A stretch of DNA of 64,000 bases, from contig JAAYSG010000060.1 in assembly GCA_012518435.1 (NCBI GenBank), forward strand, positions 9,777 through 73,776, written 5' to 3'. The translations under genes were made by a program, and so were the position numbers. How positions within the stretch are numbered: position 1 is the first letter of the stretch; the number at the start of each line of letters is the position of its first letter. Shown one piece after another: positions 17,385 through 33,735 of the stretch. The notes beneath the pieces were generated by a model. The model had not been told where the DNA came from and did no database searches. It saw nothing but the letters and a program-made list of their open reading frames with translations. Source of the DNA: Bacillota bacterium (GTDB lineage Bacteria > Bacillota > DTU030).

Positions 17385-18878
17385 TCAATTCCCACTGTCT
17401 TTGCCGGGAATAAGGAAGGTGTACTTTTCCCCACCTTTTTCCCCGAAGCCCTCTACCGTGCAAAATAGACCCAAAATCCTATCCACCATCCCCTTAAACT
17501 GCCGGTACTGCCTTTCCGCAACAAAAATAAAACCGTGGGCTAAAATACTGTAATTCCTATTTCTAATTTGGTTGCCAAGGTCAATCCAATCAATACCCTT
17601 CCCTTTGCCGGTGGGCACTTGGCTTAAGCGGAAGGGATCATTGAGGGCTTCCAGAAGCATATAACCATCCATGAGGGCGATGGGAGCAGGCAGTCTTTTC
17701 ACCGGCTCCATTTGGGCATCCTGCCGCGCCCCGTTAAAGAGTGTCAAGAGGTCGGGGGTAAAGGGGGAATAATTAGGCTGGGCCGTATCAATGTCATGGC
17801 AGGCCAGGCGCCGCTGTTCCATAATTTCCAAAAGGCGATATAAAAACAGGGAAGCAGAATCCCATTGTCCCTGGTGGGCCCGCCGCTGAGCATTATGGTA
17901 TACGGTAAAAACTAGGGTTTCAACGGCATCCTTATCTTGCAACAAGTCCAAGGTTGATCTTTGCGGACCGGTGGGCATCAATTTTGCCAGATAGTCCACC
18001 CTATCTTGCTGTTCCTGAAGAAAAGCAACCTCTCTTGTAATTTCACCCAAATTTAGCTTCTTTTTTATTTCTATTGCCTGGCCCAGCTGGTGGGCAGCCA
18101 TTTTTAAATTTAAACCATCCCAGGCCCCATAGGCCAGGGCCAAGGCCTGTAAGTATTGGGCTCGGCGGGGATCGGGCACATTTTGCACCAACTCCGACAG
18201 GATTTGGCTGGCCCCGTAAAATTCTTGCCTTTCCAAGAGTTCCAAGGCATTTTTTTCCCTTAAGACGCCGAAGACCTCATAGGGGTTGGGGAGAATCTTT
18301 AAGTACTCAGTACCCGGTTCCGGACAGCGGCGATCCTGCAAAAAGTTGGTGTTGTCCACATAGAGGAGATCAAAACCTAGGAAGGCCCCCACCAGGGCCA
18401 GCCCGGCGGCCATTGATTTGGTACCCCCGGTGATATCCACGGCTATTTCGCTTTTCCTCCCCCACTGTTCCCAGACTTCCTTAACCGCCTGATAAATTGT
18501 CCGCAGATCCGCCTTTTCCACCAACCTTTTATCCCATTGGGAGGGTGAGAGCCCGACATAGTCGATTATTTCGTCCAAATGTTTTTCCGTATCCATTGTA
18601 TAGAGGAAAAGGGTTTTTTGCGGTCGACAGGCCGATAGGGTGAAAATAAGGGGTTCCGGTGATTTCCCCACCGTCATAATAAGGCCAAAGAGATTCTTCT
18701 GGCGCATTTTCTCCCTTTCCCGAGCCTCAAAAATGGAGCAGGCCAAGGGAAAAACCTTTTCCCGATAATAACGGGCGGCCCTTATTCCTTCCTCACCCTT
18801 TGTGGGCATGTCCCGCCACTTTTTCTTTACCAGGGCCAACTCCTGCTGCAAGTTATAATTTTCCCCCTCAGTGGTCAT
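17385..18878 (-). CDS. csx1: Csx1/Csm6-family CARF-HEPN ribonuclease, a cyclic-oligoadenylate-activated type III ancillary nuclease
   Basis: The N-terminal CARF Rossmann domain reads FGLIMTVGKSPEPLIFTL...ITGGTKSMAAGLAL. The C-terminal HEPN R-X6-H motif is NQIRNRNYSILAHG. It lies directly downstream of csm5. Confidence 0.8.
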   Translation of the reverse strand: MTTEGENYNLQQELALVKKKWRDMPTKGEEGIRAARYYREKVFPLACSIFEAREREKMRQKNLFGLIMTVGKSPEPLIFTLSACRPQKTLFLYTMDTEKHLDEIIDYVGLSPSQWDKRLVEKADLRTIYQAVKEVWEQWGRKSEIAVDITGGTKSMAAGLALVGAFLGFDLLYVDNTNFLQDRRCPEPGTEYLKILPNPYEVFGVLREKNALELLERQEFYGASQILSELVQNVPDPRRAQYLQALALAYGAWDGLNLKMAAHQLGQAIEIKKKLNLGEITREVAFLQEQQDRVDYLAKLMPTGPQRSTLDLLQDKDAVETLVFTVYHNAQRRAHQGQWDSASLFLYRLLEIMEQRRLACHDIDTAQPNYSPFTPDLLTLFNGARQDAQMEPVKRLPAPIALMDGYMLLEALNDPFRLSQVPTGKGKGIDWIDLGNQIRNRNYSILAHGFIFVAERQYRQFKGMVDRILGLFCTVEGFGEKGGEKYTFLIPGKDSGN

Positions 18879-19093
18879 TGCACATCTCTCCTTTTCATAA
18901 GGGCTTGTTAAAGATAATCCTGCTGGGCTGCCACACCCCCATGCAGTATCTTGTCGGCCTTCTAGATAAAGGGCAAAATATCTTACAGATCATCCCAAGG
19001 GCTCCTCACAGTCCAGCCTTCGAAATAAACTTATGAACTGCTGCTGGCTAATTATAAGATAATGGAACTCCTTCCTTAATGTATCGCCTTTCT

Positions 19094-20239
19094 TTAATCG
19101 GCGGGACTTATCTGCACCTTCACCCAACCCAAGGTGGTGCACGGTTCTATCCCTTCCTGCATAACAACCTTGCGAGAACGGGGAAAAACCCCAGGATGCC
19201 GTGCTTTATAGAATTTTTGCCCCAGGTTCAGGCGTTCTTGCCCCCTCAAGGCCTGGCTAATAGTCATTGTCAAAAGGCCGGTCCCCCAGCCCAGGCGAAG
19301 ATTAGCCCCTCTTCCTTCCAGGCCCAGCAGATCATCCACCACCCCCTTCAATCCGGCGTGCTGGAAAAAGACCCTTTCCTCCGTGAGCAGGGCTGCTGTT
19401 TTCTCCTTGAGGCGGGAAAAAAGTTCCAGTGGCGTAAAAATACCCCTTCCTCCGGGGAATGCCCGAAAAAGCCCTTGCAAAAAGGGCGGAAAGGTAATGG
19501 TGCCAGTAAAAATTGTCCCCGGGGCTATGGTTTCTAAAAATACTGAAACTTGCCTTTCCCCTCTTCTGTCCCGGCGATCAAGGGAAAAATGAAAACCTTT
19601 CTCTTTATTGAGGCTGACAACCTTCACTTCAACCACTTCGGTGCAGTCCGGGTCCTCTGTGTGAAAGTCGCTTATTTGCAGGGTACGAAACCAATCCCGG
19701 TGGGGACCCTGCCTCGCCCCCGGAATATGGGCTTGGCTAAAAACATCCTCTTCTAAAAACCGTGCCACAGTTTTAGGATTATTCCTATTGGCCACCGCCT
19801 TTGCTGCACCTTTCCGCAGGGCTTCATCTTCTGTACAGTAAAGGTAAAGAATGAGATTGCGCAGGGCACCCTTTACCGCCGAACCTGGGATAACCGGTCT
19901 ATTCCCCACCATATCCCATTGCTGGGGGCGGAGGCTGAAAAAATGGCCTTTGATCTTATGTTTAATCCTGCGGCTGCTAATGGCAGCCCGCAGTGATTCC
20001 GCCTTGCGCCGGGGGAGGGACTGGAAAAAGCGAAAGAGATTGGGCCGGTAATCCCCCCCCAGGTAGCTTAAAAAACCCGCCGTTAGTCCTTCATCGTTTA
20101 GGGCCCGGACAAGCCTGTCCTCATTTATTAAATAGACCCACTCCCTATCCCGGAGAAACTCCATTGTTCCCAGTTCCCGCCCTTCTCCACCTATATGGAA
20201 GGGAGAAAGAATTTCCATCTCCACCTTATATCTGGCCAT
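19094..20239 (-). CDS. csm5: Type III-A RAMP Csm5 (Cas7 group)
   Basis: The G-rich loop IPGSAVKGALRN is present, the size is 381 aa, and it follows csm4. Confidence 0.8.
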   Translation of the reverse strand: MARYKVEMEILSPFHIGGEGRELGTMEFLRDREWVYLINEDRLVRALNDEGLTAGFLSYLGGDYRPNLFRFFQSLPRRKAESLRAAISSRRIKHKIKGHFFSLRPQQWDMVGNRPVIPGSAVKGALRNLILYLYCTEDEALRKGAAKAVANRNNPKTVARFLEEDVFSQAHIPGARQGPHRDWFRTLQISDFHTEDPDCTEVVEVKVVSLNKEKGFHFSLDRRDRRGERQVSVFLETIAPGTIFTGTITFPPFLQGLFRAFPGGRGIFTPLELFSRLKEKTAALLTEERVFFQHAGLKGVVDDLLGLEGRGANLRLGWGTGLLTMTISQALRGQERLNLGQKFYKARHPGVFPRSRKVVMQEGIEPCTTLGWVKVQISPAD

Positions 20240-20248
20240 ACTTACACC

Positions 20249-21181
20249 TCACTTCACCCTTACTAAAAAGGAACGCCCATACCTATACACCGGGTGGTAG
20301 CGGCGGGCAAATTCCGCAGGGGCCACATCCACTATGCTACCCTCTATGGGACGGGAAAATATACTCCCCTCAGCAAACATATTCAGCCGCAGGTGTTTGT
20401 GGTTTCCTAGAGCCCTGGGAGAATAAATCCAGCCACCCCGTTTTAAGAGGCGGTAGAAAAGAAGGGAGCCTCGGGTTTCCGAGGGGTCTGCTGGGTAAAC
20501 AAGGGACAAGGTCAAGTAGTTTTTCCCTCCCTCCAGCCCCGGACAGGAAAAATCCTCCACAAAAGTGGGAGTAAAGCGGCCATATCCCGAAGAGCGCTCC
20601 CCCCCTATTCCCTCTTCACCCAAGAGTTTAAGAACAGGCCCTAGTTGCCGCCAAAGGTCATCGCTCTCCGTCTTTAGTAAAAAGTAAAGGCCACAATCCC
20701 AATCCCGACAAAAGTGCACTTCAGCCACCTGATAAAGGGAGGAATCCTGACTAAGCCGATCCAGGGCCACCCGGGGGCGAAGTTCCCTAGTAATTGCCTC
20801 AGCCAACCTGGACTGGGATTTTTCCAGCTCTGTTAGGGAAAAATCAGCCCCTTGAATCCAAGGGGAAAAGAGGGATTCCGGCACATAGCGGGCCCTTTTG
20901 ACCCCCTTGCCATAGATACTGCGCAGGTCGGGATCTGATAAGGAGGCCAGCGCCAGGTAGGGTTTGGGATAATAGTATTCATCCCTTATGTAGGGGAAGG
21001 CAGAGGATAGACGCAGGGGCAGGTGTCCCTCGGGGGGGCCATAGACCCGGCACCAAAGACTATAAATAGCCCCGTAAAGGGTATCGGAATGGATCATGGT
21101 GCTGACCTCTTCCATACCCAAACCCCTTTCCCCCACATGGAGGGGGGAAGTAAAGCATAACTTTATGGCTCTAACGCCCAC
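20249..21181 (-). CDS. csm4: Type III-A Csm4 (Cas5 group RAMP)
   Basis: The N-terminus FTSPLHVGERG...HSDTLYGAIY is characteristic of Csm4. The size is 310 aa. Confidence 0.85.
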   Translation of the reverse strand: MGVRAIKLCFTSPLHVGERGLGMEEVSTMIHSDTLYGAIYSLWCRVYGPPEGHLPLRLSSAFPYIRDEYYYPKPYLALASLSDPDLRSIYGKGVKRARYVPESLFSPWIQGADFSLTELEKSQSRLAEAITRELRPRVALDRLSQDSSLYQVAEVHFCRDWDCGLYFLLKTESDDLWRQLGPVLKLLGEEGIGGERSSGYGRFTPTFVEDFSCPGLEGGKNYLTLSLVYPADPSETRGSLLFYRLLKRGGWIYSPRALGNHKHLRLNMFAEGSIFSRPIEGSIVDVAPAEFARRYHPVYRYGRSFLVRVK

Positions 21182-21187
21182 AGCAGC

Positions 21188-22033
21188 TCACCTGCCCTCT
21201 CCACAGAGCTGGACCAAAACCTCGGCAAAAAATTGCCCCAAGCCCTGGTCTTGCCCCTGCACATAAGTTTCTTCCTTTTCTGCACCCCGGCCAGGTAAAT
21301 AATAAGACAGGGGCCGGTAATGCACCCGCAACCTTTGCAATTCCACCCGGCCCGAACCCCGGGAGCCACTACCGCCAAGAAAATCATCGTTGAGAAGTTG
21401 AAGGAGGGAAAATATCTCCTCCAGGTCTGAAGATATTAAAGGAGCACTTAAGGGCTCATCAAGGTTATAAAAAAAACAGAAGTTAAACCTACTGCCCCGG
21501 GGTACCCTTTCCAACTGCCGGGGGGTGGCAGCAGATGTCAAACGATCCAAGGTGTTTTCAAACTTTAATTCCGTCAGATATAAACCCGTATCGATCTTTT
21601 CCAAAAGTTCCTTACTTTCCCCCTTAAGGGCCGCATCCTCCACATAAAGGCGGGCCGGGCGACTTTGGGGAATATTCCCATCTGAACTGGCGCCAAAGAG
21701 GCGGCAAACATGGCATTCTGGCACATTACATTCGTGGTGACGCACCTTATCCACCCGTTTATTAAAAAATTCGCCAATGCTTTTCTCGCTAAATTCTTGC
21801 CCGGCAAAGGCCTTTTTTTCGGCCAAACTGCGCAGTTTTCCCTTAATACTGCTCCCGGGAATATAAGGTTCCCTGGTTAGGGGATCCCGTACTACAGGAC
21901 TATCTACCCCACCTATTTCCATTACTTCTTGGGAAGCCCCAATATGTAAACCCGTCTGGCAATATAGCTCCCCGGCTATTTTTATCTTGCCCAAGAGCTT
22001 GCCCGTTGTCAGCATAGGAGCCATTTTCCACAC
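21188..22033 (-). CDS. csm3: Type III-A Csm3 (Cas7 backbone subunit)
   Basis: LGKIKIAGELYCQTGLHIG and YIPGSSIKGKLRSL are the classic Csm3 G-rich loop. The true start is probably MLTTGK, a few codons in. Confidence 0.9.
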   Translation of the reverse strand: MWKMAPMLTTGKLLGKIKIAGELYCQTGLHIGASQEVMEIGGVDSPVVRDPLTREPYIPGSSIKGKLRSLAEKKAFAGQEFSEKSIGEFFNKRVDKVRHHECNVPECHVCRLFGASSDGNIPQSRPARLYVEDAALKGESKELLEKIDTGLYLTELKFENTLDRLTSAATPRQLERVPRGSRFNFCFFYNLDEPLSAPLISSDLEEIFSLLQLLNDDFLGGSGSRGSGRVELQRLRVHYRPLSYYLPGRGAEKEETYVQGQDQGLGQFFAEVLVQLCGEGR

Positions 22034-22036
22034 CTC

Positions 22037-22444
22037 CTAATTTCCACCGTAAAAGCGGTGATAGGCAACCACACCTTCCACAAAACGGAGGAATTTTTCA
22101 AAGTCTTCTTGTCCTTCTTCCCCCGGGCGGATCTTGTCGATGGCCAAGCCCAGTACCTCGGACAAGGGTTGCACCTGTCGGCGCTGCCTGGCCGCCGCAT
22201 AGGCCAGGTGCACCTTCAAGAGCACCGCTGCCTGTTCTGCGCTTATATCTTTGTCCCGGCGTTTAATTTGCAAGTCCACTTTGCGCACCCCGTCTAAAAA
22301 CTTCCGAATTTGCGAGGTCTTCAGTCCCGCATCCTTGACAGTTTTGGCTAAATTATCAGCCCACTGCACCAGATCTTTATTGTCCACAGCAGCCAAATAG
22401 TCCATCTTCTGCAGTTCCTTTTTAATATCTCTAACCGTCCTCAA
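22037..22444 (-). CDS. csm2: Type III-A small subunit Csm2 (Cas11)
   Basis: It is a 135-aa all-helical basic protein between cas10 and csm3. Confidence 0.75.
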   Translation of the reverse strand: MRTVRDIKKELQKMDYLAAVDNKDLVQWADNLAKTVKDAGLKTSQIRKFLDGVRKVDLQIKRRDKDISAEQAAVLLKVHLAYAAARQRRQVQPLSEVLGLAIDKIRPGEEGQEDFEKFLRFVEGVVAYHRFYGGN

Positions 22445-24867
22445 CCTTCCCCACCTCCCCTGGTAATTAAATCAATGACCCTTAGCACCGCTGGTAGATA
22501 ATAGCTTAAATTTTCCCCGTTCATGGCCGCCCCCAGCAAGGGCCGGTAGAAACTGTCCCGATAAGATCTGTTTCTTTCCTCGGAACGGGTGAAGAGGTAA
22601 TGGAGCCGGGGTATTAGCCAGGCCCTCTCCCCGTTTTCCCCACGGGCATAGGCGGCGGCCAAATGGGCCAAATTGTGGAGAAAACTTTTACTATAGGCCA
22701 AGGGCCTTATCCTTCCCTTTTCACCATAGTGTGCCCCCCGCAGGAATAAGGTGTAAAAATCCTTGAGGGTACTACACCCTCCGGTGGTAACCTCCCTCCC
22801 TCCCACCTTATCCCACTTGAAGGCCCAATGGGAAAAGGCAAAGCTATCCCGCCCATTATCCTTTGCCTTCTGCTCCCCTTGGCCGGCCATTTCCGCCAGC
22901 CGATAAAGGGGGATTTTCTCATCCGCCACCGTCAACCCACCCGATAGGGTTAAGGAGGGATTATGGCCGGTGTAGCGGCGAAAATCCCCATGGATCTGAT
23001 AGGCAGCCTCCAAAGCATCATTCCAGGCTCCCAGCAAAAATAGATCATCCCCTCCGGCATAGACCAAATTCAACCACATTTTACGGCCTTGATGGACCAA
23101 GAGGAGGGGATCCTTTATTTCCTCAGCCAAGAAGGCAGGCAAATAGTATTTAAAGTAAAGGTTAAGCCTCTCTGAAAGGTCATTTAGGCGGGCAAAGGAG
23201 AACTTATCCTCCAGCAGGCCACGACTAAAAACCGACCCTAATCGATCCACATCCAGGCGCAACACTCCTAATTTTTCCGCCCCTATACTATTTTCAACTA
23301 GGCCGTCAAATTCTTTACAAGTAAAATAACTGCCGGAGGGAAAATTTCCCGCAGCCACCGACACGGGTTTTGATAAGACCCAGGGGGTATCCAGGAGATA
23401 ATATCCAGCCATGGGCCCGGAATAGTTGCCCCGAGTGAAAAGAAAAGGTACCCCCATCAGATCCAAGAGCAAGCCATCACCCTTGTTGGTGGCTTGTCCC
23501 GATTTGGGAAGGCGGTAAAATTCCTTTACCTCCGGCAACAGCTGGCCTAAACTAAACATCTGGGCACAGAAGGGGCAGACCAACAGATCATCCTCACCGG
23601 GATAGGGAATTAGTTCTTTACCCCTTTCCTGGCAAATAGGGCAAGATTCCTCTGCTGTTTCCGGGGCAAAAATACTGGCGTAATCCTCCTCAATCTCCCG
23701 CAACCACTTTCTTTCCTTGGCAATACTGAGTTTTTGTCCCACCATATGCCAAGTTTTACCCAAGCCACCGGCCAAACCCACCGCCGCTAGCGGTTCCATC
23801 GCCAGGGAAAGGTAAAGGGTTGTACCAAAACACTGGTATAACCAGCTATTAACCTGCCGCTGGACAGCAGTTATCTTTTCCCGCGCCCTTAGAGTATTTG
23901 GGACCAGGAGGTATAAACCCCCACCACTGGCATAGATGATGCAGGCCCGGGGCAGATCCAGCTCCGTCACTAGACGGGTTACAAGGGCTTCCAGGAGTAA
24001 TTCCAAATAAAAAGAACGCCCCCGCACCGTCTTCAGAGCCCCTTTGGAAGATAAGGTATAAATAAAATCTTGTATCCCAGAGAGATCACCCCCCAGAAGG
24101 AGGTAACGCTCCTCCTCTTCATCCTCAATTTTCTCCCTCAGGTCTTCCCCGGCCCAGGAGGCACCATCCTCCTGCAAATACTTATAGGTGCACCAGGCCA
24201 AGGCAGCCGTAGTTTTTAAGTGGTGATAGAGGGAAATGTCGGGCGCTCCCCCCAGTGCGCATGAATTCCCAGGAACATAAAGGGTGTACTTTTGCAACAA
24301 AAGAAGCAGAGTATCCTCTGCCACACCCCTGGGGTCCTGGGCCAACTCTCCCCGTAACCCTTGCCACAGCCCCTTATATAAGTTAGTAAAATCCACAGTC
24401 CCCTTTCCCCCCACCCGGGGATAATTGTAGTCCACCGCCGGCCGCGGTTCCCAGACTAAATCTTCTTTCACCGGCTCCCTATGGGGCAAGGCAACCCCTT
24501 TAAAAACCGGGGACAGCAGACGGTCCGGTTCCAAATCATCCTCTCCCCCAACTCCCAATCCCTCCATCCCGGTGGCAATATTATTTGCCTGGGCCACCAG
24601 GTAAAGACTATTTTGCAAATTATAATTTTTTCCCGGCAGGGCCTCCGGCGCTAATTCCCCATATTGGGCATCATCTTCTTTTAGCAGATGGTGCCGCCTA
24701 ATAATTTCCACCACATTTTGCGACAGACCAGCCCCTTGGGCCCAGAGGGCACCTAGTTCCTGGTGCCGCAGTTTGCGCCTGTCATCATCCTTTGCTAAGG
24801 AGCGGAAAATCAGCTTTCCAATATCATGCAGCAGTGCACCGGTAACAATATCCTTGCGCAGAGCCAT
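22441..24867 (-). CDS. cas10: Cas10/Csm1 large subunit, with both the HD nuclease domain and the GGDD cyclase palm present
   Basis: There is an N-terminal HD motif (ALLHDIGK), zinc-finger cysteines (CPICQ...CPFC) and YAGGDDLFLLGAW (GGDD). The size is 808 aa. Confidence 0.92.
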   Translation of the reverse strand: MALRKDIVTGALLHDIGKLIFRSLAKDDDRRKLRHQELGALWAQGAGLSQNVVEIIRRHHLLKEDDAQYGELAPEALPGKNYNLQNSLYLVAQANNIATGMEGLGVGGEDDLEPDRLLSPVFKGVALPHREPVKEDLVWEPRPAVDYNYPRVGGKGTVDFTNLYKGLWQGLRGELAQDPRGVAEDTLLLLLQKYTLYVPGNSCALGGAPDISLYHHLKTTAALAWCTYKYLQEDGASWAGEDLREKIEDEEEERYLLLGGDLSGIQDFIYTLSSKGALKTVRGRSFYLELLLEALVTRLVTELDLPRACIIYASGGGLYLLVPNTLRAREKITAVQRQVNSWLYQCFGTTLYLSLAMEPLAAVGLAGGLGKTWHMVGQKLSIAKERKWLREIEEDYASIFAPETAEESCPICQERGKELIPYPGEDDLLVCPFCAQMFSLGQLLPEVKEFYRLPKSGQATNKGDGLLLDLMGVPFLFTRGNYSGPMAGYYLLDTPWVLSKPVSVAAGNFPSGSYFTCKEFDGLVENSIGAEKLGVLRLDVDRLGSVFSRGLLEDKFSFARLNDLSERLNLYFKYYLPAFLAEEIKDPLLLVHQGRKMWLNLVYAGGDDLFLLGAWNDALEAAYQIHGDFRRYTGHNPSLTLSGGLTVADEKIPLYRLAEMAGQGEQKAKDNGRDSFAFSHWAFKWDKVGGREVTTGGCSTLKDFYTLFLRGAHYGEKGRIRPLAYSKSFLHNLAHLAAAYARGENGERAWLIPRLHYLFTRSEERNRSYRDSFYRPLLGAAMNGENLSYYLPAVLRVIDLITRGGGEG

Positions 24868-24973
24868 TCCCCCCCTTCATGGTCTAGATAGGCTGTAATA
24901 AATAATGGTTGCAATTCCCGGAGGGAATTAGGATATTCCTTATAACCTTCTCTTTTCCCATTCCAACTTACAA

Positions 24974-25239
24974 GGTTACCAAGTTTCAATTCCCACCAGG
25001 GAATTAGGAGTGTTTTAACTAAAATAAAACAGTTCAGCCGGGATTACATTTCCACAGTTTCAATTCCCACCGGGGAATTAGGCATTGTTTGGGCGTGATG
25101 TTAGGAGTATGTGCTGTCGTCTAAGAATATTTCAATTCCCACCGGGGAATTAGAAAGTGTTTTGATTTCCTTGGAGACGGTATCAAGTGGCGGCCTGGGC
25201 ATTCTTCAATTCTCAAAGGGAATAGAGAGAGCTTACTAA
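24974..25239 (-). CRISPR. Degenerate CRISPR array A: 4 repeat copies of a variant repeat, TTTCAATTCCCACCGGGGAATTAG..., with spacers of 48, 36 and 38 bp
   Basis: Repeats lie at 24974-25009, 25058-25093, 25130-25165 and 25204-25239 (the last is strongly decayed). The AATTCCC/GGGAATT stem is the same as in array B, but the loop (ACCG) and the 3' half differ. Confidence 0.55.
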
Positions 25240-25452
25240 TAACGGGAGGATGACAATAATACAATTTGACATTTTAGGTGCAAATTCCTTCCAAAACGCC
25301 GCAAATAGTAAATAACCCCTTTGCATAACCCCAAACCCCTGAAATATAAGATTTTAGACCATGCAAGGGGCCCGATGAGGAAAATAATGGGTTTTGTCCA
25401 TCGCCACTCATTGGGACAAATTGGGCTGTGGGTAAGGCAAAACCCCCTCGTC

Positions 25453-26415
25453 ACATAATTCCCCAGGGGAATTAGAGGGTGTTTTGACATAGGCACAATG
25501 GGACTTGCTCCCATATTCGATAGTTTCAATTCCCCAGGGGAATTAAAGGGTGTTTTGACCTTTTCCAGCGCATGGAAAGCGCCGGCGCCGTGATTTTCAA
25601 TTCCCTGGGGGAATTAAAGGGTGTTTTGACGCCATATCTTTTATAATTTTGGAAATGATCGTGGTTTTCAATTCCCTGGGGGAATTAAAGGGTGTTTTGA
25701 CGGGCCTTTTGGTGTACCAACTGTGCTAGTACGGTCTTTCAATTCCCTGGGGGAATTAAAGGGTGTTTTGACCGGCGGCAATTGCTGCACACAGCAAGCC
25801 CAGCATCTTTCAATTCCCTGGGGGAATTAAAGGGTGTTTTGACGGAAGCATGAAGGAACTATCGGAAGTGATGGAACTTTCAATTCCCTGGGGGAATTAA
25901 AGGGTGTTTTGACCTTGGAGGATCTGCAAGCGTATATCCGTGGCGATCTTTCAATTCCCTGGGGGAATTAAAGGGTGTTTTGACCGGGGTTCACCGTAAG
26001 TTATTGGGTAAACTTTATCTTTCAATTCCCTGGGGGAATTAAAGGGTGTTTTGACACCCGCCCCCGGTATGTTTAATTTCCGGGGTAATCTTTCAATTCC
26101 CTGGGGGAATTAAAGGGTGTTTTGACCGCGGATCGCGGCGGTGGATTAGGTTGGAATGGAGATTTCAATTCCCTGGGGGAATTAAAGGGTGTTTTGACAC
26201 GGCTTTGTGGTGGCAGACTATGTGGTAGCCGTGATATTTCAATTCCCTGGGGGAATTAAAGGGTGTTTTGACTTATCACTATCGGAATTGGCCATGCGGA
26301 GGCAGAATTTCAATTCCCTGGGGGAATTAAAGGGTGTTTTGACTTGGCCGCCGTCCTGTATCTTTCTTCCGCCTTCTGATTTCAATTCCCTGGGGGAATT
26401 AAAGGGTGTTTTGAC
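25453..26415 (-). CRISPR. CRISPR array B: 14 repeats of 36 bp and 13 spacers of 34-38 bp. The repeat on the plus strand is TTTCAATTCCCTGGGGGAATTAAAGGGTGTTTTGAC, inferred to be transcribed as GTCAAAACACCCTTTAATTCCCCCAGGGAATTGAAA.
   Basis: Repeat starts are 25453 (degenerate, truncated), 25524 (CCCCAGGGG variant), 25595, 25666, 25737, 25808, 25878, 25949, 26020, 26091, 26163, 26237, 26308 and 26380. Degeneracy is at the low-coordinate end. Confidence 0.95.
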
Positions 26416-26790
26416 AGTGAGCTCTGTAACCCTTACTGTATAAGGCCCGAAATGCTGCTTTGCGCGAAACTACAAATTGGCTTGTAATATACTTTGACCT
26501 TCATGTCGGAAACTCCTCCTAAGCGTGTCAAACAAGGATCGCGAAGCTAGCGGGTTTTTATGTCCCGTTGACCTATGCGAATGCGGGCAGAGAGAGCCCC
26601 GCCCCTGATATGGAAGGGCCATGTCAAGACCCCATCCCGGGGAGTATTAGGGCTATTTTGCAAGTATACGCACAGGATCCAAAGTGTTGATTGGCGCGAG
26701 CCAAGGGATTAGCCCTAGTATGCTAATTACTTTGACTCATATCCCAGGAAATCCTTCAAGGTAGAAATAATAAAACCCACAATTATAAAT
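26416..26790 (-). promoter_or_regulatory. Putative CRISPR leader (AT-rich, non-coding) flanking the conserved end of array B
   Basis: It is a roughly 370-bp non-coding AT-rich segment next to the best-conserved repeats. This orientation matches the cas operon direction and a GTC...ATTGAAA repeat polarity. Confidence 0.45.
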
Positions 26791-26835
26791 GGCAGTAAGA
26801 AGGATAGTGGGCGGTGGTAGATGGGGCAACAAGAA

Positions 26836-26883
26836 AATAAAGCATGCCGTATTTAAAGAAGCAGGTACTTTTGTACCTGCTTC
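26836..26883 (-). terminator. Strong rho-independent terminator between the serine hydrolase gene and the CRISPR leader
   Basis: GAAGCAGGTAC-TTTT-GTACCTGCTTC is a perfect 11-bp stem, followed on the minus strand by TTTAAATAC..TTTATTTTCTT. Confidence 0.65.
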
Positions 26884-27059
26884 TCACCCACCATATAACA
26901 AAGGTTCCCTTCATTTTTCAATTTTAAAAAGTACTAGTAAATGGTGCGTAAATGTGCTTTGCCTTCCCAACCCATCCGGGGAAAATGACATGGGGAACAA
27001 CTTTGAGGAAGCAATCTTTACCCAATAAATAACCTAAATACAGCCATTAAAATCCCCCC

Positions 27060-28034
27060 TTAGAAACGATCAAAGGGCCAATATTCTTCTATAAGGCCAC
27101 TGAGAATTTTTTCAATGGGTTCTACATCATGCTGGTAAGCCTGGGTAATTATTATGCCCCTGTCTGCAGGTAAAATAGTCAGGGTTTGGCCATCGGTTCC
27201 GTGACCAAAGTAAAAATCTTCCTTGGCTAACCAAATGCCATACCCATAGCCATAACGGCGAAATAGCCTTTCAGGGGTATCCACATCTTTAGTGCGAAAA
27301 CGTAAGGTTAGCATTTTGTCCAGCCAGTCTTTAGGGATGATGGTTTGGCCCCTAAATACCCCTCCATTTAAGAGGAGTTCTCCTATCTGCAACAAACCCT
27401 CCGGGAATAACCATAGACGGGTCGCCCCGGCCAAGTACTTACCATACCTCTCCCACCTAAAATCCTCTAGGCCCAGGGGATTAAAAAGTTCCCGGGTGAT
27501 GAATTCCAATAAATCTTCCTGCAAAAACTCCTGCAGAGTCACCGCCAATAAATAAAAACCAGCATTGGAATACAAATAGTGTTCCCCGGGCTCATAGACT
27601 AGGGGGTAATTTACCAATAAATCCACATAAGTATGGGGATCAATATCTTTAATATCATCACGCATTAACAGCACCTTGTCATAGCCAATGGAGTGGGTTA
27701 AAAGGTGCCTGACCTGGATCTTTTGCAGGTATTCCAGGTTTTTTTCATTGGTCAAGTTGACAACATCTTTTATGAGGGGATAAACATATGTGTCATCGCT
27801 AAAGGGTGTATATTTGCCTTCCCGGGCCAAGCGATACACAATCCCTGCCGTCAGTGTCATGACGGTTTTACTAATACTACGTATATCACTCATGTCTCTT
27901 TTTGCCTTGAAGCAATGGACAAAACAATTATCCTTATCCTTTAGGAGAAAATAGTGCATATTTATTTGCCTGCCCTTACTATCCTTGGCCTGTTCAAACG
28001 TTTTTACTAGCTGGTCAAATTTTTCCTGGTTCAT
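27060..28034 (-). CDS. Beta-lactamase-fold serine hydrolase (class C / esterase-like family)
   Basis: SxxK (SISKTV), YxN (YLYSNAGF) and an H-G-T third motif (FGHGTDG) are present. The gene is markedly lower in GC than the flanking cas genes. Confidence 0.7.
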   Translation of the reverse strand: MNQEKFDQLVKTFEQAKDSKGRQINMHYFLLKDKDNCFVHCFKAKRDMSDIRSISKTVMTLTAGIVYRLAREGKYTPFSDDTYVYPLIKDVVNLTNEKNLEYLQKIQVRHLLTHSIGYDKVLLMRDDIKDIDPHTYVDLLVNYPLVYEPGEHYLYSNAGFYLLAVTLQEFLQEDLLEFITRELFNPLGLEDFRWERYGKYLAGATRLWLFPEGLLQIGELLLNGGVFRGQTIIPKDWLDKMLTLRFRTKDVDTPERLFRRYGYGYGIWLAKEDFYFGHGTDGQTLTILPADRGIIITQAYQHDVEPIEKILSGLIEEYWPFDRF

Positions 28035-28105
28035 TATCTCACCTCTCACCATCTCACCCCCACTAATCTTTAAAAATAGTGCAACAATAATGCCCTATAA
28101 TGAAT

Positions 28106-28139
28106 GGTTTCAAGTTAGTCCAAAGGCTAACTTGAAACC
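28106..28139 (-). terminator. Hairpin terminator after the FGGY kinase gene
   Basis: GGTTTCAAGTTAG-TCCAAAGG-CTAACTTGAAACC is a 13-bp perfect stem with a moderately U-rich minus-strand tail (ATTCATTAT). Confidence 0.5.
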
Positions 28140-28162
28140 ACACTTCATAAGCCATCTTTTAT

Positions 28163-29728
28163 TTAATCGACATGCTTCATGGCCACCTGGGCCAACTCAT
28201 TATAGATGTTGGCATCCTTAAGGGCTAAGAAGGTCTTTTTAAACATTTGATAAAAATCGGTGTAAATTTCATGTTTTTTCATATCGGGTTGGATAATCTC
28301 CTCAGTATGCACCATATCTTCAATGGCTTCATCAATACTGTTTAAGGCCCCTGCCCCAACTCCACCTAAAATAGCTGCCCCCAAGGCTGCACATTCCGAT
28401 ACCTGTAGTCTCTCCACCGGTCTGCCATAGATATCTGCCTGCATCTGGGTCCAAAACTCTGAACGGGCCCCGCCCCCGGAGAGACGAATAATATCAAAGG
28501 GGCGCCCCAGAGCCCCTTCCATGGCCTCAACTGCCATGCGCAACTCATATATAATACCCTCCAGTACTGATCTGGCCACATGATGCCGATCATGGATTTG
28601 TGTTACACCCAGCATGCCACCCCGGGCATTATCATGATAGTGGGGAGTTGCTTGGCCGTTAAAGGAGGGGAAGAACAAAAGACCACGGCATCCTATGGGG
28701 GCCTGGGAGGCTTCCAGGGTTATGATATCATAGGGGCTTAAATTTAAGACTGCCCCCATCTCCTTTTCGGGCTGGCCAAAGGTATCCCGCCACCATCTGA
28801 GGGCCTCTCCCGCAGCATGGGCTGTACCTTCCATATCCCATTTGTGGGGAATGGCATGGCTGCCAAAGGATACCCCGCTTCCGGCAATTTGGTCCACATT
28901 TTTGATGTCATCTATTTGGGCCACCATGACAGCAGCAGTACCCAGGGATAGCTCGGCGATCCCCTCCCTGTTTACCCCCGAACCCACTGCCGCACACTGT
29001 TGATCCCCACCACCGGGAGATAAGATAGTACCAGGAGCAAAGCCGGTGGCCTCAGCTGCCTCTAAAGAAACTTCGCCCACTGATCTCAGATCATGGAGGA
29101 TAGGGGGCAATTTTCCCCTATCTATGCCTATGGCATCTAATAATTCGGCTGACCAATCTAATGTTTCGATATTAAACATTCCATTATAGTTTAATGCCGA
29201 TGGAACGGCAAAGGTTTCTTCCGATCCTAAACGGTGTAAAACCCACTCCTGGCCATTGACAAACTTCCAGGTTTTTTCGTAAATATCAGGATGATTATCA
29301 AGCAACCACTTTAACTTCGGGTAGACCCACATGCTTGAAGGATGCAAGCCACTGGTGTTATAGTATTTATCACTACCGATCTTATCTTTTATCCATTGGG
29401 TTTCCTTGGTGGCCCGCCCATCTGACCAGACAATGGCATCAATTAGCGGTTCCCAGTTTTTATCTATGGGGACAAAGGAACCCCTCTGGCTGGAGACACC
29501 AATGGATACAATATCCCGGCTAGCACCCTTAAATTTACTAATTGCTTCTTTGGAGGCTTTACACACCCCAGCCCAAAGTTCCTGCATATCCTGATCAACC
29601 CAACCGGGGTGGGGGTGTTTAGTAGTATATTCGCTATAACCACTGCTGACAATATTACCCCGACCATCAAAGATTATAACGGCTGTACCCGTTGTACCCG
29701 CATCAATCCCGGCAAAATATTTTGCCAT
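28163..29728 (-). CDS. FGGY-family carbohydrate kinase (xylulokinase / LsrK-like)
   Basis: The N-terminus MAKYFAGIDAGTTGTAVIIFD is the FGGY phosphate-1 motif. The size is 521 aa, and the C-terminal FGGY motifs (RLSGGGARSEFWTQMQADIYG) are present. Confidence 0.85.
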   Translation of the reverse strand: MAKYFAGIDAGTTGTAVIIFDGRGNIVSSGYSEYTTKHPHPGWVDQDMQELWAGVCKASKEAISKFKGASRDIVSIGVSSQRGSFVPIDKNWEPLIDAIVWSDGRATKETQWIKDKIGSDKYYNTSGLHPSSMWVYPKLKWLLDNHPDIYEKTWKFVNGQEWVLHRLGSEETFAVPSALNYNGMFNIETLDWSAELLDAIGIDRGKLPPILHDLRSVGEVSLEAAEATGFAPGTILSPGGGDQQCAAVGSGVNREGIAELSLGTAAVMVAQIDDIKNVDQIAGSGVSFGSHAIPHKWDMEGTAHAAGEALRWWRDTFGQPEKEMGAVLNLSPYDIITLEASQAPIGCRGLLFFPSFNGQATPHYHDNARGGMLGVTQIHDRHHVARSVLEGIIYELRMAVEAMEGALGRPFDIIRLSGGGARSEFWTQMQADIYGRPVERLQVSECAALGAAILGGVGAGALNSIDEAIEDMVHTEEIIQPDMKKHEIYTDFYQMFKKTFLALKDANIYNELAQVAMKHVD

Positions 29729-30087
29729 AAATTAGCTCATCCTTTCTATTTTATTTGCTATTAAAAAGCCCTCGTTAGCACTAGCCTGCTCTAACAGGGA
29801 ACTCTATAGCCATTTATCCCTATATTTCCTTTTTTTATCTAATATACTCCGCCCCAGAAACAAATATTGTCTTCGCATTATTCCATATTTTCATTCACCA
29901 TTATTAATATCCTTCGCTAACTAGGAAACAATTCCTCCTTCTTTTTGAAAATAACTAGTTATTGGCCGGTACCTATCTAGTGATCCTGAGATCCGATATG
30001 AGGATGGCGGCAGGAAGTCCCTTTCCCCTACCGAAGTAATTCTCTATATACTAATTCCCTTCGAAAATAGGAAAGGTGTGCTCTACT

Positions 30088-30855
30088 ATGCTACAAAGGT
30101 TTAGATTTACCCTAAAATGTCTGCAGGCGGGCAGGGTGAGGGGGATGGGGGGAGGGGAGGTACATGGCCTGCTCTTTTCCCTTCTGGGGGAGGCCGGAAA
30201 AGAAAGAGCGGAAGGGCTACATAAAACCAGCAAAAAGCCTTTCTCCCTATCGCCCTTACAGGGGATAGGGAAAAGGCACAATGGTTTTTTTTACCTTCAG
30301 CCGGGGGAAATATATAGTTTTACAGTTGCCAGCCTTACGGAAGAAATGCACCACCAGTTAGAAGAGGTGGTGGCTCGCTGGAGCCCAAGGGAGATAGAAT
30401 TAGGGACGGCCCTTTTGGCCACCCAAGATGTTGGGCCGGAAATACCCGGTGGTATAACCTACCAGGAGCTTGTGGCCAAGGCCCAGGCTAGACATAATAC
30501 AAGTTTGGAATTTGTCACCCCCACCAGCTTCCGCCAAAGGGGAACTCAAATCCTCTTCCCCCAGCCAGAATATGTCTTCGGCAGCTTACGCCAGCGCTGG
30601 AATGATCACGGCCCCATTCAACTCCCTCTGGATTTAGATCTAACCCAAGTCCGGGTCACAAGGCACCGGATACACACCCAGGTCTTACATTTTAAGAACT
30701 ATAAAATCATCGGCTTTACCGGTAGATGTAGCTATCAAGTATCCGAAAAAACCCCCGACTTCCTCCCCTGGCTCCTTTCCGTCTTGGCCAATTTCGGGGA
30801 AATTGCCGGGGTGGGCTATAAAACCACCATGGGGATGGGGGTTATGAGGCGTTAG
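30088..30855 (+). CDS. cas6: Cas6 crRNA endoribonuclease (RAMP), separated from the effector operon
   Basis: The C-terminal glycine-rich loop is GEIAGVGYKTTMGMGV (GxGxxxxxGxG). The size of about 255 aa is typical. It is the only cas gene on the plus strand, 3.6 kb from the array. Confidence 0.8.
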   Translation: MLQRFRFTLKCLQAGRVRGMGGGEVHGLLFSLLGEAGKERAEGLHKTSKKPFSLSPLQGIGKRHNGFFYLQPGEIYSFTVASLTEEMHHQLEEVVARWSPREIELGTALLATQDVGPEIPGGITYQELVAKAQARHNTSLEFVTPTSFRQRGTQILFPQPEYVFGSLRQRWNDHGPIQLPLDLDLTQVRVTRHRIHTQVLHFKNYKIIGFTGRCSYQVSEKTPDFLPWLLSVLANFGEIAGVGYKTTMGMGVMRR

Positions 30856-30944
30856 AAGTAAGGAAGGTGCAAACACACATCCCGACCAGCAAACCCCCAC
30901 CTAGGGCCCTCCAGCCCTTGCTTAATTTACTCAACCGGGGAGTG

Positions 30945-32372
30945 TTAAATCTTTAGACCGGGTGCTTCCTTGCTCAGTTTCCCATAATCAAAGGGTTTCC
31001 CCAAAGGGTTGAAAACAATTGTTAATAATAGGGGCACGGCTAGGGCAAGGGCAAAGGAATAGAGCAAATTACCCCGGGTAAATAAGGGGTCTGGGAAGAG
31101 GATGGCCCCGGCCATAATGCCTAAAATCGTGGCTAGGGCGGCTGCCTTCCCGGACAAGCGCTCGACAAAGAGGCCGGCCAATGTTGGGACAAAGGCTGCT
31201 GCACAGACTAGATCGGCAAGGAAAAACAGGTAGAGGACACTATAGCCCCGGGAAGATACAATAACAGCCAAGGCGCAGATTAAAGCAGTAATTAAACGAG
31301 CCTTAGCAACCAGGCCCTGGGGAGTAAGCTCCCTTTTCCGACGGCCCATTTCCACGGTAATAACACTGACAATGGCATTGATTAGTGTATCCACAGTACT
31401 CATAACCAGGAGCATGAGCATAACAATGACAACAACCATTACCCAGGACGGCGTGGCATAAAGCACCAGCTCAAAGAGGGCGGCGGAAGGAATTACTTTC
31501 CGGTCAATGGTCAAGGCCATAAGGCCAAAAAAGCCGGACATGAGCATCAGGGGCAGCATAATGAGCCCGGCCCCCAGAAAAGATTTGCGGACAGTGGAAT
31601 TGTCTTTACAGGCGTAGGAGCGGGTCCAGTAGGCTTGGTTGAAAAAGTTGGAGGCAATGACAGCAATTAAGAGGGTGAGGAAAAACTCCCAGCCTTCCCA
31701 ATGGGAAAGGCTAAATATATGGGGGTTTACCCTCTGGGCCTTCTCCATAATTACCTCAAAACCTCCCAGGCTTTGGCTGCTGGTAAAGAAGGCAATAAAC
31801 ATAAGGGGGATAAAGATGGCCGCCTGAATAGCATCGGTAAAAATAGTCCCGTGTATACCGCCATAGGTTGTATAGATTAAAGTGCCGCCCCCAATTAGCA
31901 GGGCAACTAACCCCAGGGGAAGGTCCGACACCAGGTTGATGGCCAGAGCAATTCCCGTTAATTCTGCGGCAATAAATACCGATAGGTAGAATACTGTTGT
32001 GAATAAGGTAAGCAGATGCATTTGGGAACCAAAACGATGGTAGACAAACTCCGGTAGGGTTGAACCCCAGGGGAAGATTTCCCGCAGGCGGGGCCCAATC
32101 CAAATGAATATGAATATCCCGCAAGCCTGGGCCAAGGCATAGCCGCCAAAGGCCAAAACCCCTCCCCAAGTAGCCGCTTCGGGAAGGCTAAAGAGGATCC
32201 AGGATCCCATTTCGGAAGCTAAAATCGTCCCCATGGCCACCAGGCTAGTGAGGGTACCCCGGGCGGTGAGGAATGAATCCACATCCTGGACTTTACTACG
32301 ATGTTGGTAAACATACATTACCGCAATAATTGTAAACATCACCACAGGGGCAATTATCCAAAAAGTCATCAC
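30945..32372 (-). CDS. Sodium:solute symporter (SSS) family transporter
   Basis: It is a 475-aa polytopic protein with SSS-like N-terminal segments (LTARGTLTSLVAMGTILASEMG). Confidence 0.7.
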   Translation of the reverse strand: MMTFWIIAPVVMFTIIAVMYVYQHRSKVQDVDSFLTARGTLTSLVAMGTILASEMGSWILFSLPEAATWGGVLAFGGYALAQACGIFIFIWIGPRLREIFPWGSTLPEFVYHRFGSQMHLLTLFTTVFYLSVFIAAELTGIALAINLVSDLPLGLVALLIGGGTLIYTTYGGIHGTIFTDAIQAAIFIPLMFIAFFTSSQSLGGFEVIMEKAQRVNPHIFSLSHWEGWEFFLTLLIAVIASNFFNQAYWTRSYACKDNSTVRKSFLGAGLIMLPLMLMSGFFGLMALTIDRKVIPSAALFELVLYATPSWVMVVVIVMLMLLVMSTVDTLINAIVSVITVEMGRRKRELTPQGLVAKARLITALICALAVIVSSRGYSVLYLFFLADLVCAAAFVPTLAGLFVERLSGKAAALATILGIMAGAILFPDPLFTRGNLLYSFALALAVPLLLTIVFNPLGKPFDYGKLSKEAPGLKI

Positions 32373-32652
32373 TTAAAACTCCCTTCAACGCGACATAATT
32401 GGCAGCAGGCGCAATTGTCGTTTAAATATGGTCACCCCTGCATCCTTCCCGCTGAAAACAACATTCCCTTATTTACTTCAACCCCTATGATCCATCTATT
32501 CACCGGACCCGGGGTAGCACGATTTCACAGCTCTTTACCAGCAGTGGGAAGTAATTCGCCCACCACTAGTTTCATCCTTCTAATGATGCCAGCCTTGCTG
32601 GTATGGATGCCCTTTAGGATGGCAAGTTATTCTTATTCCCAAAACAGGGAAA

Positions 32653-33420: not shown

Positions 33421-33497
33421 TTATTTTTCCTCCTACGGCAAAATTTCCTTCTCCTTTGGCTCCACTCTCCTTATTGCTGTTGCACCCCCTTCTCAGC

Positions 33498-33538
33498 AAA
33501 ATAAAAAGCCGCCCTTCCGGTCTGGATAAGGCAGCCTA
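33498..33538 (-). terminator. Candidate intrinsic terminator / expression platform of the TPP riboswitch
   Basis: On the minus strand an imperfect GCUGCCUU...AAGGGCGGC stem is followed by UUUUUAUUUU, between the aptamer and the thi4 start. Confidence 0.4.
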
Positions 33539-33554
33539 AAACCTTTGTGTCAGC

Positions 33555-33640: not shown

Positions 33641-33735
33641 TTTTTTCCATTATAACCCCAAACAGCAGTGGCGTCAAATCAAACACAAATTTTGAGCCAA
33701 CTAGTTTGTCCAGTTACCAGTTTTCACCGCCTCAT

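Follow-up and report, generated by a model that had tools for sequence, protein, structure and literature searches.

A kinase-hydrolase gene pair flanked by a stand-alone cas6 and the CRISPR leader of a type III-A locus is very probably a metabolic passenger

Two genes that are not cas genes, encoding a beta-lactamase-fold serine hydrolase and an FGGY-family kinase, lie between the CRISPR leader and cas6 of a type III-A locus in the window (the whole stretch of 64,000 nucleotides analysed here). An earlier sequence-only reading had described this arrangement, and the open reading frames, the domains, cas6 and the leader were all found; it had left two possibilities, passenger insertions or candidate type III accessory genes. 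We consider it very probable that the pair is a self-contained metabolic cassette unrelated to CRISPR, occupying the variable gap that separates a stand-alone cas6 from the array leader. Many other bacteria carry the same pair away from any CRISPR locus, and the genes are therefore regarded as passengers. The first of the two possibilities thus holds in substance: the pair recurs as a unit away from CRISPR, has its kin in contigs of 28-30% GC and is absent from the nearest relatives of the locus. These comparisons fit a horizontally acquired passenger of an ordinary kind, and no new immune part.

Organization of the locus

The features of the region are as follows.

17385..24867, minus strand: type III-A effector operon cas10, csm2, csm3, csm4, csm5, csm6 (Pfam and PADLOC)
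24909..25166, minus strand: mini-array of 4 variant or degenerate repeats, adjoining cas10
25167-25451: leader-like stretch beside the mini-array
25452..26415, minus strand: main CRISPR array, 14 repeats of 37 nt (Rfam CRISPR-DR63 on the minus strand)
26416..26855, minus strand: leader of the main array, adjoining the best-conserved repeats
26856..26885, minus strand: hairpin with a 13-bp stem (-25.1 kcal/mol, z -5.0), 175 nt past the end of the hydrolase gene
27060-28052, minus strand: beta-lactamase-fold serine hydrolase, 324-330 aa (PF00144, Beta-lactamase family)
28106..28139, minus strand: intercistronic hairpin between kinase and hydrolase, 13-bp stem and 8-nt loop (-25.6 kcal/mol, z -6.2)
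28163-29728, minus strand: FGGY-family carbohydrate/polyol kinase, 521 aa (Pfam FGGY_N and FGGY_C)
30076..30855, plus strand: cas6, stand-alone (PF10040, TIGR01877)

The locus is of type III-A (Csm), with a Cas10 that carries HD and GGDD motifs, csm2-5, a CARF-HEPN Csm6 (by PADLOC) that is a canonical cOA effector, cas6 and an array. The arrays together span about 24909 to 26415 and are read on the minus strand, so that the leader faces the hydrolase gene. The mini-array and its leader-like stretch have the same arrangement in the related locus L068, and the main leader, over the 118 nt that adjoin the repeats, matches the leader found upstream of cas10 in that locus at 66% identity (E 1.7e-4). 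The cas6 gene is divergent from the kinase gene, with an intergenic region of 347 bp between them. Neither cas1 nor cas2 was found in the 64 kb, and tblastn with the cas2 and cas4-cas1 of a relative gave no remnant; the array had no match among the INPHARED phages by megablast, and Rfam reported only CRISPR repeats around the pair, with no riboswitch or other known RNA.

The canonical type III-A order is array-cas10-csm2-6-cas6, as in Staphylococcus epidermidis. The window shares with it an array upstream of cas10, csm2-5 and csm6, the HD/GGDD Cas10 and the CARF-HEPN Csm6, but its cas6 is outside the csm operon, 3.7 kb past the array and on the opposite strand, and comes from a clade whose nearest members adjoin type I operons.

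The stretches 22332-26008, 26482-37894 and 26436-40855 are each found in one of three independent assemblies, with 99.7-99.8% identity; only 26009-26435, inside the array, rests on the window's own assembly. The eight cas10-proximal repeats and spacers of the main array are reproduced in one independent contig (L072). We consider it exceedingly improbable that the juxtaposition is an assembly artefact in which a segment with leader, hydrolase and cas6 was joined through identical repeats onto the cas10 segment. Two short-read contigs with the pair do stop 20-66 nt before the first repeat, the contig with cas10 stops inside the array at 26008, and the stretch between is covered by the window assembly alone; such breaks at arrays are, however, expected of short-read assemblers, the repeats are identical on both sides of the uncovered stretch, the leader beside the hydrolase has a homologue in the leader next to cas10 in L068, and a relative has counterparts of both Cas6 and the repeat together, its repeat being about 90% identical.

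Properties of the two proteins

The hydrolase matches PF00144 with an E-value of 1.4e-20 and 74.2 bits against a cut-off of 27. In 24 homologues S58 and K61 (SxxK) and Y160 and N162 (YSN) are invariant, as are G284 and T285 of the HGT motif, in which His is the majority residue; the window protein has SISK, YSN and HGT. Translation probably starts at the ATG at 28034, since homologues align from residue 7, and a signal peptide is not evident in the translation. The AlphaFold model (pLDDT 93, pTM 0.92) is compact and single-domain, and has the two-part alpha/beta plus all-alpha domain fold of the PBPs; its best Foldseek match in the PDB is the PBP-like esterase Lsa45 (TM 0.78, E 1e-19), with NylB, EstG, the R61 DD-peptidase and others among the further matches. 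By sequence and modelled fold the protein is classed as a cytosolic class-C beta-lactamase/PBP-like serine hydrolase of the family VIII esterase/amidase type.

Its closest known systems are the PBP-like or family VIII esterases and amidases, such as Lsa45 of Leptospira (PDB 8dc1), the 6-aminohexanoate-dimer hydrolase NylB, EstG and the LovD-type acyltransferases. It has in common with these the fold (TM 0.78 to 8dc1, and many matches with E about 1e-13) and the SxxK, YxN and H-G-T motifs, but it is only 14-20% identical in sequence to any solved structure, it is compact (320-330 aa) with no evident signal peptide, and its family is centred on low-GC Firmicutes.

The kinase is a complete FGGY protein, matching FGGY_N (6e-57, 193.5 bits) and FGGY_C (3.6e-35, 122 bits) over residues 4-458. 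The full two-domain architecture is that of the xylulokinase XylB, the glycerol kinase GlpK, GntK and LsrK, and the ATP-site motifs DAGTTG and GGGARS of known FGGY kinases are present in the translation. It clears no NCBIfam equivalog cut-off: the best match is XylB (321 bits against a cut-off of 380), followed by GntK (274 against 649), GlpK (266 against 590) and LsrK (237 against 528). Because it is below every equivalog cut-off and about equally far from the glycerol kinases and xylulokinases of the PDB, the kinase is assigned, from these scores, to a group of orthologues, as yet uncharacterised, that are found paired with the hydrolase.

Occurrence of the pair in other genomes

Sixty-one loci with hydrolase homologues were fetched (about 55 distinct, 534 kb). 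The closest comparisons come from metagenome assemblies, since a search of genome contigs with the single hydrolase sequence gave only two distant Erysipelothrix loci; in a database of 5.8 billion proteins the nearest homologue is only 67% identical and comes from a contig of 29% GC.

Kinase and hydrolase are linked in six other genomic contexts, with identities to the window proteins of 67-79% and 47-67%, respectively. Three of the six have the same tandem order and strand: L003-L006 (kinase 79%, hydrolase 67%), L009 (78% and 64%) and L012 (75% and 62%). The pair is convergent in L041/L042 (67% and 48%), where the neighbours in L041 are a DeoR regulator, a G3P-dehydrogenase-like gene and a second FGGY kinase; it is divergent with one gene between in L073/L074 (75% and 55%), with a SorC-type regulator as neighbour in L073; and the two genes are 6.4 kb apart in L050 (69% and 47%). 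The three tandem contexts also have the intercistronic hairpin at the same site (L003, L009 and L012), with three base pairs kept through changes on both sides. Kinase and hydrolase are recurrent partners of each other in several unrelated genomes, and the compensatory changes mark the intercistronic hairpin as a conserved feature of the two-gene cassette.

Test of an association with CRISPR

The sequence-only reading had raised the possibility of type III-associated accessory genes and had suggested looking for hydrolase homologues next to cas10 or csx1 elsewhere. No cas gene or array was found in the 61 loci: tblastn with the window's cas proteins over the 534 kb gave no match, Cas10 and Cas6 HMMs and a phmmer panel gave only three matches of 13-14 bits, to ORFs of 230-310 aa, no CRISPR array was detected, and the Pfam tables of the neighbours contain no cas family. 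A repeat array beside the homologue in L027 is a plain tandem repeat of 81 nt and was rejected as CRISPR. Neither protein has a CARF, SAVED or other extra domain, the hydrolase consisting of PF00144 alone and the kinase of FGGY_N and FGGY_C alone, and neither was matched by PADLOC. In a literature search, no report came up that connects type III systems with FGGY or serine beta-lactamase-fold proteins. The 2025 CRISPR-Cas classification (PMC12669027) makes no mention of kinases or hydrolases anywhere in its main text, and its sole 'beta-lactamase' is the metallo-beta-lactamase (beta-CASP) Cas14 of type VII.

It is thus very unlikely that the hydrolase, the kinase or both are a lineage-specific type III accessory, for example an enzyme that degrades or modifies cOA, or an effector. 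Position is all that favours this, as the pair is inside the cas6-to-array interval and shares its strand with the array and the csm genes, and such a role would be new, given the silence of the classification. Against it stand the absence of cas genes and arrays from all 61 loci, kinase orthologues that travel with the hydrolase and not with cas10, the domain and PADLOC results, the related csm loci L068 and L069, which have no copy of the pair in the available sequence, and the presence of Csm6, which already fills the effector role.

Comparison with related CRISPR loci

Two groups of relatives are informative. L068 shares with the window the csm6-DUF2148-ThrDH flank at 84-88% amino-acid identity, and L062-L066 share cas6 (60%) and an ELFV dehydrogenase (82%), with a different non-cas gene between cas6 and the effector operon. 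The closest cas6 relative also has its cas6 in divergent orientation to the effector operon, with a non-cas gene between, and the cas6-adjacent module there is of type I, as against type III-A in the window. The pair is absent beside cas6 or the csm operon in these nearest relatives, as regards L068 and L069 within the sequence at hand, their contigs ending at or near the arrays and the region past their leaders being outside the comparison.

The proposal that insertions had split cas6 from the effector genes finds no support in this comparison, since cas6 is outside the csm operon in every related csm locus found. As to whether array and cas6 are normally contiguous, the relatives keep the outer flanks and do not have the pair, within the same bounds on L068 and L069.

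We also considered whether the pair had replaced a type I and adaptation module between cas6 and the leader. This idea found no support: tblastn with the relative's cas2, cas4-cas1, cas3, cas5, cas7 and cas8 and with the L068 CARF protein found no remnant in the window, the best match (E 0.036) lying inside csm5. Nor does the window leader significantly resemble the type I leader of the relative.

Base composition and origin of the pair

With a GC content of 0.427, against a mean of 0.506 (z -2.9), the hydrolase gene is the lowest of the 48 genes in the window, as had been noticed when a horizontal insertion was suggested on the grounds of its AT-richness. The observation stands, but the signal is for the most part not one of recent insertion. 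GC2 of the gene is 0.305 and that of homologues 0.23-0.25, which makes this a family trait. At third positions the deficit of the hydrolase is milder than its overall GC deficit and is found in the kinase too (GC3 of the pair 0.474 and 0.479 against a mean of 0.542, the second and third lowest of the 48 genes), and in its synonymous codons the pair is host-like. Family-wide amino-acid composition accounts for most of the GC deficit of the hydrolase, with no signal of fresh insertion. GC is 0.28-0.30 in the Firmicute-type contigs that carry the closest homologues and 0.33 at the median of the hydrolase loci, as compared with 0.50 for the window and 0.48-0.61 for its CRISPR relatives.

Any transfer was an old one, to judge from the host-like codon use. 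We propose that both genes came together, by horizontal transfer, out of a donor of low GC and have since drifted largely to host composition. No tRNA was found in the window, no direct or inverted repeats flank 26400-30200, and there is no transposase or integrase among the neighbouring ORFs scanned; no relatives of the hydrolase were found in IMG/VR, and PLSDB plasmids matched neither protein. These searches give no pointer to the route or the direction of transfer.

The alternative that the pair is the older resident, an ancestral housekeeping placement around which cas6 and the array and csm genes were assembled, is unlikely, although the host-like codon use and the lack of mobile-element scars suit it, CRISPR modules are highly mobile, with the change of the cas6-adjacent module between type I and type III-A as an instance, and L003 has, immediately upstream of the pair, a PF16949 permease and an ABC ATPase, two families that in the window occur 4 kb upstream of it. 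Between window and L003 the pair is 79% and 67% identical, whereas the ABC ATPase and the permease are far more diverged (48% and 22%). An anchored position of the CRISPR parts is suggested by the outer flanks of the csm operon (DUF2148 and ThrDH, in L068) and of cas6 (ELFV dehydrogenase, in L062), which are conserved in relatives. The finding that the sequence-only reading had named as pointing to ancestral placement, the same two genes at the same position in related genomes, was not obtained, as no relative has the pair there; and the nearest homologue, as given above, is distant and from a low-GC contig.

Hairpins and transcription

Both hairpins are stable (z -5.0 and -6.2), which bears out part of the claim that each gene has its own hairpin terminator. 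The tails that follow are UUUAAAU (26856-26885) and AUUCAUUAU (28106-28139); neither is a canonical U-tract, and a terminator consensus scan flagged neither hairpin. For this reason two further claims are not borne out: that a strong terminator at 26858-26883 insulates the leader, and that the genes are separate transcription units, the hairpin between them being the conserved feature of the cassette described above. The hairpin at 26856-26885 is possibly a weak terminator before the leader, and may reduce read-through into it. The pair is probably transcribed as one unit from the 347-bp region shared with cas6, and the intercistronic hairpin might adjust how much kinase is made relative to hydrolase, or make the upstream message more stable.

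The pair is transcribed in the direction of the leader, and the hairpin that comes after the pair is non-canonical, so some transcriptional coupling to the array is possible.

Discussion

Non-cas genes within or beside CRISPR-cas loci that have no functional link to them are background neighbours in gene-neighbourhood surveys. The pair resembles these in being metabolic genes between cas genes and array with no recurrent cas association elsewhere; it differs in being a cassette of two genes that is conserved, as is its own intercistronic hairpin, and in that composition and phylogeny give a clear hint of a horizontal origin. In the metabolic role that we favour, the hydrolase would act on a derivative of a sugar or polyol, cleaving off a group bound through an ester or amide link, and the kinase would phosphorylate the product of the hydrolase or its precursor. 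The pair would have no role in type III immunity, which Cas10 (HD/GGDD), Csm2-5, Csm6 and the nearby Cas6 already cover.

It is highly improbable that the cassette has been co-opted into type III function in this lineage, by read-through to the leader or through an enzyme acting on cOA signals. In the first case, transcripts from the pair's sugar-regulated promoter would pass the non-canonical hairpin, and the supply of crRNA would then depend on nutrient state. Co-option has only position and a common strand in its favour, and all of the comparative evidence speaks against it.

For a metabolic cassette that is very probably unrelated to CRISPR, placement inside a CRISPR-cas locus, even in the gap between cas6 and leader, is no evidence of function, and the case can serve as a negative control; the candidate 'serine-hydrolase accessory gene' can be dropped. 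The uncharacterised FGGY orthologue group and its compact cytosolic PBP-like hydrolases are a modest lead for enzyme function in anaerobic Firmicutes. The locus itself shows modular turnover around an anchored stand-alone cas6, with type I in one case and type III-A in the other and nearly the same repeat.

Organization of the locus

An FGGY kinase and a PF00144 serine hydrolase lie between cas6 and the CRISPR leader. The sequence-only reading had identified both genes and arranged them relative to the leader, array, csm operon and cas6 as they are found here:

24909–25166: mini-array of four variant or degenerate repeats, directly in front of cas10 and separated from the main array by a 285-nt gap
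25452–26415, minus strand: main CRISPR array, 14 repeats of 37 nt (repeat strand by Rfam CRISPR-DR63)
26416 to about 26855, minus strand: leader of the main array, facing the hydrolase
27060–28052, minus strand: serine hydrolase (PF00144), 330 amino acids as called
28163–29728, minus strand: FGGY kinase, 521 amino acids (FGGY_N 6e-57, FGGY_C 3.6e-35)
30076–30855, plus strand: cas6, divergent from the kinase with 347 bp between
Downstream of the arrays: cas10, csm2, csm3, csm4, csm5 and csm6; the HD and GGDD motifs of Cas10 are intact, and csm6 is of the CARF-HEPN type

The leader is assigned to the stretch facing the hydrolase because Rfam places the repeats on the minus strand, with the degenerate ones lying towards cas10. 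The mini-array region (24909–25451) includes a leader-like stretch of its own, between the main array and cas10. Kinase and hydrolase are separated by 110 nt, and 643 nt of non-coding sequence extend from the hydrolase to the array. Since alignments of the hydrolase homologues begin at residue 7, and the ATG at 28034 is preceded by a good ribosome-binding site, the protein probably starts there and is 324 amino acids long. A 79-residue open reading frame (26789–27028, plus strand), annotated in public contig L070, falls between the hydrolase stop codon and the leader and spans a hairpin; it has no family match and is probably spurious. Elsewhere in the window (6514–8667 and 1600–3627) are two possible other defence genes: an N6-adenine methyltransferase of 717 amino acids, with Eco57I/TaqI_C/MmeI-like domains and PADLOC MTase_II, PglX-like and type IIG matches, and a 675-residue protein with a weak LeoA-like match.

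Three independent metagenome assemblies match the region at 99.7–99.8% identity. Contig L072 corresponds to 22332–26008 (cas10, mini-array, gap, and eight repeats with identical spacers), and the two pair-carrying contigs, L070 and L071, correspond to 26482–37894 and 26436–40855. The latter both end 20–66 nt before the first repeat, and 26009–26435, inside the array, is supported solely by the window's own assembly, as might be expected if pair and CRISPR locus had been brought together in an assembly chimera. Short-read assemblers typically break at arrays. The leader on the hydrolase side is similar to one found next to cas10 in a relative (66% over 118 nt, E = 1.7e-4), and we regard the join between the two sides as real, with only the slightest residual doubt.

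The kinase–hydrolase pair in other genomes

The hydrolase family is well populated (356 matches to proteins of about 320 residues, the best non-self match at 67% identity), and members come from Tissierellaceae, Clostridiaceae, Atopostipes and Erysipelothrix, among other named sources. We sampled 61 hydrolase-family loci (534 kb in total, roughly 55 distinct), and six further contexts link the hydrolase with a kinase orthologue of 67–79% identity.

Arrangement of kinase and hydrolase genes at loci with hydrolase homologues
L003–L006, L009 (same contig as L011), L012: tandem, same order and strand
L041/L042: convergent
L073/L074 (Tissierellaceae MAG): divergent, with one gene between
L050: 6.4 kb apart

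Enough upstream sequence is available for four distinct close homologues of 62% identity or more, and in three of these the kinase gene immediately precedes the hydrolase. Genes of sugar or polyol metabolism are found close by in other genomes: in L041 a DeoR regulator, a second FGGY kinase and a glycerol-3-phosphate-dehydrogenase-like gene, and in L073 a SorC-type regulator. In L012 a second FGGY gene (1–1865, only its C-terminus on the contig) is directly upstream of the pair; the peptide it encodes is very similar to the C-terminus of the window kinase, which suggests that the kinase was duplicated in tandem. The modelled hydrolase forms one compact PBP-like domain (pLDDT 93), for which the PBP-like esterase Lsa45 is the best structural match and NylB, family VIII esterases and LovD-type acyltransferases come next; the kinase scores under every curated equivalog cut-off.

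The alternative that the two genes are true type III accessory genes finds no support in this sample. None of the 61 loci has a cas gene (tblastn with all window cas proteins) or a CRISPR array, neither gene matches a PADLOC defence model, and neither has a domain beyond its catalytic fold. Profile searches (HMMs from 120 Cas10 and 77 Cas6 homologues, with phmmer searches for csm2-6, cas1-8 and a CARF protein) returned only three Cas10-HMM matches of 13–14 bits in open reading frames of 230–310 residues, most likely reflecting shared HD or GGDEF-type domains. We consider an accessory role very improbable; the recurrent linkage indicates that the two genes are partners of each other and not of CRISPR. 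A candidate array in L027 (about 10954–11739), beginning at the 3′ end of a hydrolase homologue, consists of at least seven tandem copies of an 81-nt unit with no unique spacers, and is therefore not a CRISPR array.

Composition and origin of the pair

At 0.427 the GC content of the hydrolase is the lowest of the 48 window genes (mean 0.506, sd 0.027; z −2.9), as the earlier inference of an insertion had assumed, but the deficit is mainly in codon positions 1 and 2. Its low GC2 (0.305) is a family trait, since homologues have values of 0.23–0.25. At silent sites the deficit is milder and is shared by the kinase (GC3 0.474, z −2.1, and 0.479, z −1.9; second and third lowest of 48), and neither gene stands out in its synonymous-codon likelihood when scored against the codon usage of the window (z +1.3 and +0.7). 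Such a composition would fit a joint acquisition that is old and largely ameliorated, and carries no signal of fresh insertion.

Contigs with the closest pair homologues have GC contents of 28–30% (L003 0.295, L009 0.277, L012 0.285), and the median of all hydrolase loci is 0.33, whereas the window is at 50% and the relatives found via its cas genes at 48–61%. Between the window and L003 the kinases are 79% and the hydrolases 67% identical, compared with 48% for the neighbouring ABC ATPase and 22% for the PF16949 permease. The GC disparity and the greater similarity of the pair than of its ABC neighbours point to horizontal transfer between a low-GC Firmicute lineage and that of the window, in either direction. 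The counterpart of this ABC pair in L003 sits immediately before the cassette. No flanking repeats or tRNA were found around the pair, nor any viral or plasmid copies. The passenger interpretation was right in substance: this is very probably a horizontally acquired, CRISPR-independent kinase and esterase/amidase cassette that happens to sit between cas6 and the leader. That the pair is an older resident of the site is unlikely.

Hairpins and transcription

Stable hairpins flank the hydrolase at 26856–26885 (13-bp stem, −25.1 kcal/mol, z −5.0) and 28106–28139 (13-bp core stem, −25.6 kcal/mol, z −6.2). These had been read as a terminator for each of two separate transcription units, the former (as 26858–26883) a strong one insulating the leader; the stems exist, but their tails (UUUAAAU and AUUCAUUAU, respectively) have no U-tract and a consensus terminator scan flagged neither. 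The intergenic hairpin recurs between the orthologues in L003, L009 and L012, where paired substitutions in the two arms of the stem preserve three pairs (A-U/G-C to G-C/U-A, for instance). Its loop measures 8 nt in the window as in L003 and is longer in L009 and L012, and this variation argues for an RNA structure rather than a protein-binding palindrome. Textbook terminators are directly 3′ of the hydrolase in the relatives. The pair may be a bicistronic unit in which the internal hairpin attenuates or stabilises the transcript.

Related CRISPR loci

The closest csm relative, L068 (Cas10 74%), shares with the window the downstream flank csm6–DUF2148–threonine dehydratase (84–88% amino-acid identity), so that the csm operon looks anchored at this chromosomal site. 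Upstream of its cas10 are the same four-repeat mini-array and leader (about 1365–1870), then a CARF-family gene (Cas_APE2256; 312–1364) and the contig end; this gene has no counterpart in the window (tblastn, best E 0.76–1.1 in two runs). In L069 (Cas10 64%) the array precedes cas10 and the contig breaks off inside it; after csm6 are DUF2397, DUF2398 and SbcC/SMC-like ATPase genes (8148–13172), a set resembling a Wadjet-type plasmid-defence operon, in which case the region would be a defence island.

Of the informative Cas6 relatives, the closest (61% identity when found by homologue search and 60% by tblastn) is in L062–L066 (about 1–10771), from an organism related to that of the window (ELFV dehydrogenase 82%, 2-thiouracil desulfurase 71%). 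Its cas6 is divergent from a type I operon (cas8-like, cas7 (DevR), cas5, cas3, cas4-cas1, cas2), with one non-cas gene, a dehydrogenase paralogue, between; next to cas2, at the contig end, is the repeat, which shares about 90% identity with that of the window. The Cas6 homologue of Desulfotomaculum copahuensis (44%) likewise precedes type I-like genes; the loci at which this Cas6 clade sits beside type I operons are those of L062–L066 and L067 (10001–13942). In L062 two ELFV-dehydrogenase paralogues (8413–9504 and 11005–12069) flank cas6; one is 82% and the other 51% identical to the single window copy at 40894–41958. The roughly 10 kb from cas6 to this copy in the window hold a sodium:solute symporter, an adjoining Thi4-type sulfide-dependent thiazole synthase (32653–33420; TIGR00292, 243 bits, cut-off 148), the ABC transporter pair, a cell-wall hydrolase and an F420-ligase-like gene.

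In both L068 and L069 cas6 is outside the csm operon. From these layouts, members of this clade normally have a stand-alone cas6, separate from the effector genes, beside an interchangeable module. The pair fills a variable gap between cas6 and the leader, and did not demonstrably split a once contiguous III-A operon. No relative has the pair at this position in the sequence available, which for L068 and L069 ends at or near their arrays. Type I genes, cas1 and cas2 are absent from the scanned window ORFs, and there are no remnants anywhere in the window (tblastn with the relative's type I and adaptation proteins); given also the association of its Cas6 clade with type I operons, the III-A system appears to depend on a Cas6 of the type I kind, without a local adaptation module.

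Two modest leads follow: the recurrent kinase–hydrolase partnership with its conserved hairpin, and a possible exchange of type I for type III-A beside an anchored cas6 that would serve nearly the same repeat.
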